Notes under the pieces: model-generated | What the model saw: the letters and a program-made list of their open reading frames with translations, nothing else | What the model was told of the DNA's origin: nothing | Database searches by the model: none | Part shown: positions 28,926 to 29,197 of the stretch, one piece after another | Layout: each line of letters opens with the position of its first letter | How positions within the stretch are numbered: position 1 is the stretch's first letter | Program-made: the position numbers and the translations under genes | Assembly (NCBI RefSeq): GCF_003334255.1 | Contig: NZ_QOWU01000016.1 | Reading direction: 5' to 3' (one strand) | Length of the DNA: 64,000 nt | From: Escherichia coli | GTDB taxonomy: Bacteria > Pseudomonadota > Gammaproteobacteria > Enterobacterales > Enterobacteriaceae

Positions 28926-29197
28926 TTTGCTTGATCCCTATGAAATAACCGTACCGTTCATGAGACAATTCTAACCGTGAGCATTTCGCCGGTTTATTGT
29001 TTACGGCGAGACGGGAATTTGCTCACTTTTTGACTTTCCGTTACGCAACAGAAAAAGTTAAAAACGAAAAGACTAAAATCACACGTCTTGTGACCTTCTA
29101 AATTGATTCACATGCTAAATCTGATAAGTTTTAATTTCAATGGTAGGTTTATTTCTTAGCTTTCGCTAGTAAACTGATAATCAGACAAAATGGTGAC
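28926..29197. promoter_or_regulatory. divergent intergenic region between bcsRQAB and bcsEFG (promoters expected, positions not resolved)
   Basis: 272-bp AT-rich non-coding interval between divergent start codons. Confidence 0.5.

Follow-up and report, generated by a model that had tools for sequence, protein, structure and literature searches.

A near-invariant 67-bp block between the divergent bcsR and bcsE operons of Escherichia coli as a candidate shared promoter/operator

The short interval that separates the divergently transcribed cellulose operons of Escherichia coli, bcsRQABZC and bcsEFG, contains a sharply bounded, almost invariant core of 67 bp, which goes beyond what an earlier annotation of this DNA had recorded and is apparently uncharacterised, with no description of it found in the literature searched. 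We favour, with a probability of roughly 0.6, a reading of this core as a shared promoter/operator for both operons, i.e., one that combines the bcsR promoter, the -35 element and upstream portion of a weak bcsE promoter, and protein-binding DNA between the two. Among the major components of the biofilm matrix of E. coli and Salmonella is cellulose, whose control has mostly been explained post-translation, through the action of c-di-GMP on BcsA and BcsE. A non-coding block that surpasses its flanking proteins in conservation, is confined to its locus and is near-identical across E. coli suggests that a transcriptional layer has been overlooked.

The window analysed here is a single stretch of 64,000 nucleotides from an E. 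coli contig, and all positions are counted from its first letter. A first-pass annotation, made from the letters of the window, had described a 272-bp, AT-rich gap between bcsR and bcsE, and both the layout and the composition are borne out: bcsR on the minus strand and bcsE on the plus strand leave an annotated gap of exactly 272 bp, whose GC content of 36.4% compares with 51.5% for the window as a whole. The identities of BcsR, BcsQ, BcsE, BcsF and BcsG were confirmed with NCBIfam. Leftwards of bcsR, the minus strand carries the contiguous ORFs of bcsQ, bcsA, bcsB, bcsZ and bcsC, and rightwards bcsE is followed by bcsF and bcsG. The divergent orientation of the two units is confirmed, with a published bcsE start at the edge of the gap and a predicted bcsR start within it. 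A 701-bp stretch around the gap is matched at 98.4-100% identity by 5253 of 5426 complete E. coli genomes. The window encodes an intact BcsQ (a 250-aa ORF at 27973-28725), unlike the MG1655 annotation, in which bcsQ is a pseudogene; hence, the strain that yielded the window is not K-12. The features discussed below are collected in Table 1.

Table 1. Positions of annotated, published and predicted features at the bcsR-bcsE locus (window coordinates)
Feature	Position	Strand	Remarks
bcsR (62 aa)	28737-28925	-	same ends annotated by RefSeq in an E. coli chromosome of 100% identity
Annotated bcsR-bcsE intergenic interval	28926-29197	.	272 bp, 36.4% GC
Presumed long bcsR 5' leader, poorly conserved	28926-29104	-	about 180 nt in the window; in Enterobacter-type genera about 68-75 nt
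bcsR ribosome-binding site AGGGAT	28934-28939	-	read from sequence; AAGGGAT-type motifs before the bcsR ATG in most genera
Predicted bcsR transcription start (about 29105)	29104-29106	-	placed 7 nt downstream of the predicted -10
Alternative weak promoter-like TTCACA-17-TTTAAT, start about 29142	29107-29135	+	5.4-5.9 bits; at least 4 bits in 42/56 species; fully overlaps the predicted bcsR promoter
Ultra-conserved 67-bp core	29111-29177	.	CATGCTAAATCTGAT-nnnn-TTTAATTTCAATGKTAGGTTTATTTCT-nn-GCTTTCGCTAGTAAACTGA
Predicted -10 TAGCAT of bcsR promoter, 17-bp spacer	29112-29117	-	10.4 bits, 56/56 species
Predicted -35 TTGAAA of bcsR promoter	29135-29140	-	all six positions invariant
Candidate operator/activator segment, invariant	29141-29177	.	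putative; -36 to -72 of predicted bcsR start, -21 to -57 of mapped bcsE start
Weak -35-like TCGCTA for bcsE	29163-29168	+	17 bp above CAAAAT; 3/6 positions
Alternative bcsE -10 TAAACT (start about 29182)	29170-29175	+	4.1 bits, 53/56 species, no usable -35
-10-like CAAAAT for bcsE	29186-29191	+	7 nt upstream of mapped start; 4/6 positions
Published K-12 bcsE transcription start (A of annotated ATG)	29198	+	printed upstream sequence = window 29148-29198
bcsE, as annotated	29198-30769	+	same ends annotated by RefSeq in an E. coli chromosome of 100% identity
Conserved bcsE ribosome-binding site GAGGGAC	29200-29206	+	from the alignment
Conserved GTG (ATG in few genera), probable bcsE start codon	29210-29212	+	from the alignment

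The conservation of the core was assessed at three levels, i.e., across enterobacterial species, within E. coli and in metagenomes. Orthologous loci were fetched by BcsE from 58 species-level genomes, the BcsE proteins of the aligned genomes being 61-98% identical, and their intergenic regions were aligned, with 56 sequences entering the counts. Across these 56 enterobacterial genomes 42 of the 67 core positions are invariant, and the mean entropy of the core (0.21 bit) lies below that of the second codon positions of both bcsE (0.40 bit) and bcsR (0.27 bit). The core makes up about a quarter of the gap; the rest has an entropy of 1.09 bit, and its bcsR-proximal part a mean identity to the window of 0.29. 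The core contains two variable patches, at 29126-29129 (4 nt) and 29157-29159. Within the species, 5118 of 5136 E. coli genomes match a 74-bp query spanning the block at 100% identity. The same query detected no second copy in E. coli chromosomes or plasmids, nor did an nhmmer search of the window, where the only match to the core was the core itself. A metagenome scan with two sub-motifs of the core matched 116 stretches, of which 80 loci were listed; 76 of these 80 lie between bcsR and bcsE, the other four ending at a contig edge, and among the listed loci the core keeps a fixed spacing of 86-89 bp to bcsE, whereas its distance to bcsR ranges from 68 to 194 bp. Distant relatives of BcsE (at most 47% identity) keep the divergent bcsR/bcsE layout and show no trace of the core, the best nhmmer E-value being 0.55. 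Taken together, the conservation, the metagenomic flanks and the absence from distant relatives indicate that the core arose at the level of the family, is confined to this locus and is maintained by very strong purifying selection. An apparent AAWCTGAT repeat within it (29118 and 29171) was set aside as being at chance level for a 7-mer.

Inspection of the core for promoter elements points to a predicted promoter of the sigma70/sigmaS type for bcsR at its left end. The site, TTGAAA-17-TAGCAT on the minus strand, agrees with the consensus at 9 of 12 positions, including the A at position 2 and the T at position 6 of the -10 element, and, when scored with a matrix that gives the -10 position-2 A a realistic weight, it is the best sigma70-like site on either strand and the sole strong one that is conserved. 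The first variable patch (29126-29129) falls in the middle of its predicted spacer. Scores of at least 10.4 bits occur in 7.4% of shuffled sequences, a value that is only mildly unusual; hence, while the call combines score, strand, place in the invariant block and conservation, it leans mainly on conservation and position. No experimental start for bcsR (yhjR) was found in genome-wide start-site datasets, as far as these could be searched, and phrase searches for a bcsE, bcsR, bcsQ, bcsA or yhjR promoter returned no enterobacterial study. A separate promoter-like sequence pointing toward bcsR, CTGGCA-17-CATAAT, is seen on the minus strand inside the 5' end of bcsE (29242-29270). Its score is 7.0 bits in the window, and 26 of 56 species reach 4 bits or more; it may be an antisense promoter, serve bcsR as an alternative promoter, or simply result from the coding sequence.

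In sharp contrast to the core, the bcsR-proximal 185 bp of the gap (28926-29110) are scarcely alignable, and Enterobacter, Kosakonia, Lelliottia and related genera lack about 110 bp of the length that this part has in Escherichia, Citrobacter and Salmonella. The roughly 180 bp on this side are probably a long, variable and fast-evolving bcsR leader. About 10-22 nt past the predicted bcsR start, most genera carry GGCAGGA(A/T)GCC, i.e., a GGA flanked by short complementary arms, which, together with a GGGAU at the bcsR ribosome-binding site in most genera, resembles paired CsrA sites. In E. coli the early leader (29075-29097) reads GGTCACAAGACGTGTGATT, followed by a T-rich run, in place of this motif; the window has GGA at the bcsR ribosome-binding site and at +66, with none in the 5' hairpin, and folding of the alignment yields no consensus structure. 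A conserved 5' hairpin of the bcsR leader was dropped as a candidate on the strength of that alignment fold. A 34-aa ORF at 28997-29101 was likewise dismissed as a chance ORF, lying as it does in unconserved sequence.

On the bcsE side, a transcription start has been mapped in K-12 at NC_000913.2 position 3694481, with 7 reads, in a study that counts bcsE as one of 18 E. coli mRNAs that are 'leaderless' (Kim et al. 2012, PMC3415461, Table S4). In window coordinates this start places the core at -21 to -87. The associated promoter is predicted to be weak: matrix scoring across the 56 species revealed no strong conserved promoter on the bcsE strand, the candidates of 4-6 bits being TTCACA-17-TTTAAT, CTGATR-17-TAGGTT, TTTATT-16-TAAACT and TCGCTA-17-TAAAWT. 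The last of these, whose elements would fit the mapped start, scores at least 4 bits as TCGCTA-17-TAAATT or TAAAAT in 27 of 56 species, while the CAAAAT version of the window falls below 4 bits; the orthologous -10 positions read TAAAAT, TAAATT or CAATTT and are hard to recognise in the Klebsiella-like variant.

The alignment also bears on where bcsE translation begins. The annotated ATG at 29198 is unconserved, being replaced by AAG, CCG, CAG, TTG or another non-ATG codon in 45 of 55 related genomes, and BcsE homologues outside Escherichia and Salmonella are annotated with 519-520 aa. Translation probably starts at the GTG at 29210, and because this codon (GTG or ATG) and the GAGGGAC ahead of it are conserved while the ATG at 29198 is not, the untranslated gap probably extends over 284 bp (28926-29209). 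Combining the mapped start at 29198 with a GTG start at 29210 would give bcsE a 12-nt leader, in which case the 'leaderless' label would be an artefact of the annotated start. Such a start codon and leader bear on the design of expression constructs, and on how the residues of BcsE are numbered in structural studies.

Published occupancy data place the transcription machinery over the locus. In window coordinates, the ChIP-chip regions extend over 28958-29408 for RNA polymerase, 29170-29719 for sigma70, 28970-29545 for sigma32 and 29270-29694 for sigmaS (Cho et al. 2014, PMC3923258), at a resolution of several hundred bp that is too coarse to tie occupancy to one promoter. The 5' third of bcsE (29400-29700) is itself AT-rich like the gap (GC 0.37-0.42), and the sigma70 and sigmaS regions reach into it. 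[quoted passage not shown]

These results allow the other claims of the first-pass annotation to be judged. Its presumption that both promoters lie in the gap holds in part: the K-12 start at 29198 puts the bcsE promoter elements inside and the best sigma70-like match falls in the invariant block, but the bcsR promoter is a sequence-based prediction, and the bcsE start falls on base 1 of the annotated CDS, at the very edge of the gap. It had named promoter scanning as a way to check this presumption, and a scan does yield one consensus site inside the gap (the minus-strand TTGAAA-17-TAGCAT), although promoter-like sites are not in excess over shuffles (2 found as against 1.8 expected). With respect to the converse possibility that the promoters lie elsewhere, e.g., inside bcsR or bcsE, the mapped bcsE start is at the CDS edge, and the above-mentioned minus-strand promoter-like site (29270 to 29242) does exist within bcsE. 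The description of the whole gap as a control region agrees with the low-resolution RNA polymerase and sigma factor occupancy over the locus, but the function appears limited to about 90 bp at the bcsE end rather than to all 272 bp. The earlier reading was thus broadly right, if coarse, and the gap is a real control region.

Under the shared promoter/operator reading, the bcsR promoter would form the left third of the core and read leftwards from about 29105, while the upstream and -35 part of the weak bcsE promoter would lie directly to its right, with transcription beginning at 29198. The two starts, one predicted and the other mapped, would stand back to back, about 93 bp apart. The invariant segment to the right of the predicted bcsR -35 element (29141-29177) would bind one or more sequence-specific proteins acting on both promoters, and its distances from the two starts (Table 1) are those usual for activators, or for repressors overlapping a -35. 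Such shared binding would keep both halves of the cellulose machine co-regulated, and bcsE would be translated from its 12-nt leader by way of GAGGGAC and the GTG at 29210. The length of the invariance, its sharp edges, the fixed distance to bcsE and the restriction to one family fit sequence-specific protein recognition serving both promoters. Against this reading stand the 7 reads from one study that define the bcsE start, and the weak -10 and -35 elements associated with it. Further, the near-total invariance of 67 bp exceeds the usual need of two promoters, which counts against even this best explanation.

A more specific and more tentative proposal is that the core is the operator of a regulator or complex peculiar to the Enterobacteriaceae, which would switch both cellulose operons from one site; we regard such a dedicated operator as a possibility of less than even odds. 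If true, bcs transcription would be under tight, dedicated control, as opposed to the usual view of constitutive transcription combined with c-di-GMP action at the enzyme level. Comparison by eye of the conserved positions of 29141-29177 with regulator consensus sequences gave no fit. CRP, CpxR, PhoP, PmrA/BasR, ArcA, Fur, IHF, Fis, Lrp, LexA and the UP element, as well as promoters of the sigma54, sigma28, sigmaE and sigma32 types, were each rejected in this way. A TAGGT-N5-TCTTA resemblance to the RcsB/LuxR-type box was discarded on account of its wrong spacing and a right half that is unconserved in the Klebsiella-like variant.

The core could in principle act in RNA or as a peptide rather than as DNA. 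An RNA-level reading would have it transcribed within a bcsE leader from a promoter further upstream, e.g., as a boxA-like NusB/S10 site tied to the reported binding of S10 by the N-terminal domain of BcsE. The rrn boxA consensus is TGCTCTTTAACAA, and many genera carry TGYTCTTTAAT at 29125-29135 on the plus strand, some with the exact TGCTCTTTAA; moreover, the N-terminal domain of BcsE co-purifies with S10/NusE and interacts weakly with NusB (PMC7439463), which counts for a boxA. The fixed core-to-bcsE distance and a plus-strand promoter-like TTGACT-17-AAAAGT (29030-29058, 7.9 bits) in E. coli would also suit a transcribed core. However, this upstream site is peculiar to E. coli. The start mapped for bcsE lies downstream of the core, implying that the motif is untranscribed. 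The window sequence at 29125-29137, TAAGTTTTAATTT, matches the boxA consensus at 6 of 13 positions, as against up to 10 of 13 in other genera, and the four least conserved bases of the core fall inside the motif, being exactly the ones that define a boxA. Structure prediction argues in the same direction. Folding of both strands of the core and of a 116-nt plus-strand stretch (29100-29215) was no better than that of shuffles (z from -0.21 to +0.45), the z-scores of +0.28 to +0.45 telling against an RNA-level role, and z stayed between -1.3 and +0.45 over all folds, those of the bcsR leader and of the presumed bcsE leader among them. The consensus fold of 52 distinct plus-strand sequences reaches -3.59 kcal/mol with a covariation term of -0.14 and has no compensatory changes in its invariant stem; where the sequence varies (29152-29159), the pairing of E. 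coli is not kept. A pairing of the patches 29126-29129 and 29157-29159 was rejected, GTTC being constant while the other patch varies, with no covariation. Rfam and curated covariance models, including the c-di-GMP classes, had no match at E <= 1 in 28000-30000 and, in a search of the whole window, none in the gap at gathering score. Elsewhere in the window, Rfam models matched an rdlD antitoxin RNA just downstream of bcsG, ES036, naRNA4, RtT with tRNA, a cspA thermoregulator and a sok-like antitoxin, the matches outside the gap lying at 32876-32941, 38737-38779, 41015-41432, 52629-53056 and 53338-53444. With no RNA signal in the core, a constraint at the DNA level is favoured as the simplest reading, and action in RNA appears improbable. 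Still less credible is a translated mini-ORF or leader peptide running from an ATG at 29112 through 21 codons (MLNLMFFNFNVRFISxLSLVN) to a TGA at 29175-29177 in most genera. The extent of such a frame agrees closely with that of the core, and most of the 56 genomes keep it open, yet it has no ribosome-binding site upstream of its ATG, is cut to 15 codons by a TAG at 29157 in all Escherichia and loses its TGA in the Klebsiella-like variant. Codons 7-13 show zero synonymous third-position changes, as against 1.3 bit of entropy at bcsE third positions, and the changes that do exist are non-synonymous or replace whole codons; here too the mapped bcsE start lies downstream.

Two further readings were weighed. 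One would make 29105-29142 a pair of fully overlapping divergent promoters that RNA polymerase occupies in one orientation at a time, with a bcsE start at about 29142 and 29143-29209 as a conserved leader. The minus-strand TTGAAA-17-TAGCAT and a plus-strand TTCACA/TTTACA-17-TTTAAT do share one stretch of 34 bp. Scored by a classical hexamer-frequency matrix, each comes to about 9 bits, a combination of at least 8.8 bits for both being reached in just 0.55% of shuffles, and the plus-strand site is found in 42-55 of the 56 species. Mutually exclusive binding at pseudo-symmetrical bidirectional promoters of E. coli, as described in PMC12825309, likewise counts for such a pair. On the other side, TTTAAT does not have the critical A at -11, so that realistic weighting lowers the plus-strand site to 5.4-5.9 bits, and the consensus scan did not report it. 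The sole mapped bcsE start, 29198, is 56 nt further downstream, and the would-be leader is without stable or covarying structure. We therefore consider the overlapping pair unlikely, though it deserves more weight than an RNA-level role. The other reading takes the gap as an AT-rich spacer under nucleoid proteins (e.g., H-NS) with ordinary promoters, the conservation of the block being incidental. The gap is indeed AT-rich and promoter-like matches in it are no commoner than in shuffles, but the block is more conserved than second codon positions across genera and invariant in more than 5000 E. coli genomes while its flanks diverge freely, a pattern that neither neutral evolution nor a constraint on composition alone would yield. 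Nucleoid-protein binding needs no such base-by-base invariance, and there is very little to commend a plain spacer.

Returning to the shared promoter/operator reading, natural isolates offer instances in which the core is disrupted. KH_005 has an IS1 within the core, with 29134-29143 duplicated at the target; MEI4BO-21 has an IS1B at about 29158 joined to a deletion running from bcsR into bcsB; and in EC2001 the entire gap, along with most of bcsR and the 5' end of bcsE, has given way to an ISKpn26. The 74-bp core query hits 5181 places in the 5136 E. coli genomes, with at most two per genome, and the 45 extra places are probably cores split by insertions, i.e., in about 45 of 5136 genomes. 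The IS1 insertions at the core could silence one or both bcs operons. The core further provides a precise 67-bp bait for finding the putative bound factor, and a handle on the transcription of the cellulose genes.

In terms of known systems, divergent promoter/operator regions are commonplace and the two operons are well known; it is the core that is unusually invariant. Pseudo-symmetrical bidirectional promoters have overlapping -10 elements and starts roughly 18 bp apart. An assignment to this class was rejected, given that the -10 candidate at 29112-29117 on the minus strand and those at 29130-29135, 29170-29175 or 29186-29191 on the plus strand do not overlap and are separated by 13 bp or more; the starts predicted from them would lie 37, about 77 or 93 bp from each other, where the class calls for a few to about 25 bp, and the plus-strand partner is weak. 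The bcs region nonetheless resembles such promoters of E. coli and Salmonella (PMC12825309, PMC10268837) in that divergent transcription proceeds from one compact sequence and, were the two bcs promoters to overlap fully, in that the RNA polymerase binding modes would be mutually exclusive. A likeness to boxA is seen in the T-rich TGYTCTTTAAT in the core of many genera, with the difference that it is degenerate in the window (6/13). Divergent regions with a shared operator are also known in enterobacteria, e.g., bioA/bioBFCD with bioO and the csgDEFG/csgBAC curli region. Unlike both of these, the bcs regulator is putative and one of the two bcs starts is a prediction; and unlike the curli region, which spans about 750 bp with many separate sites, the bcs constraint is gathered in a single uninterrupted block of about 67 bp with hardly any variation across genera. 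As in both, linked operons leave a single short AT-rich region, with promoter elements and, here, candidate regulator sites packed between the starts, such that a single occupancy event could affect both operons.
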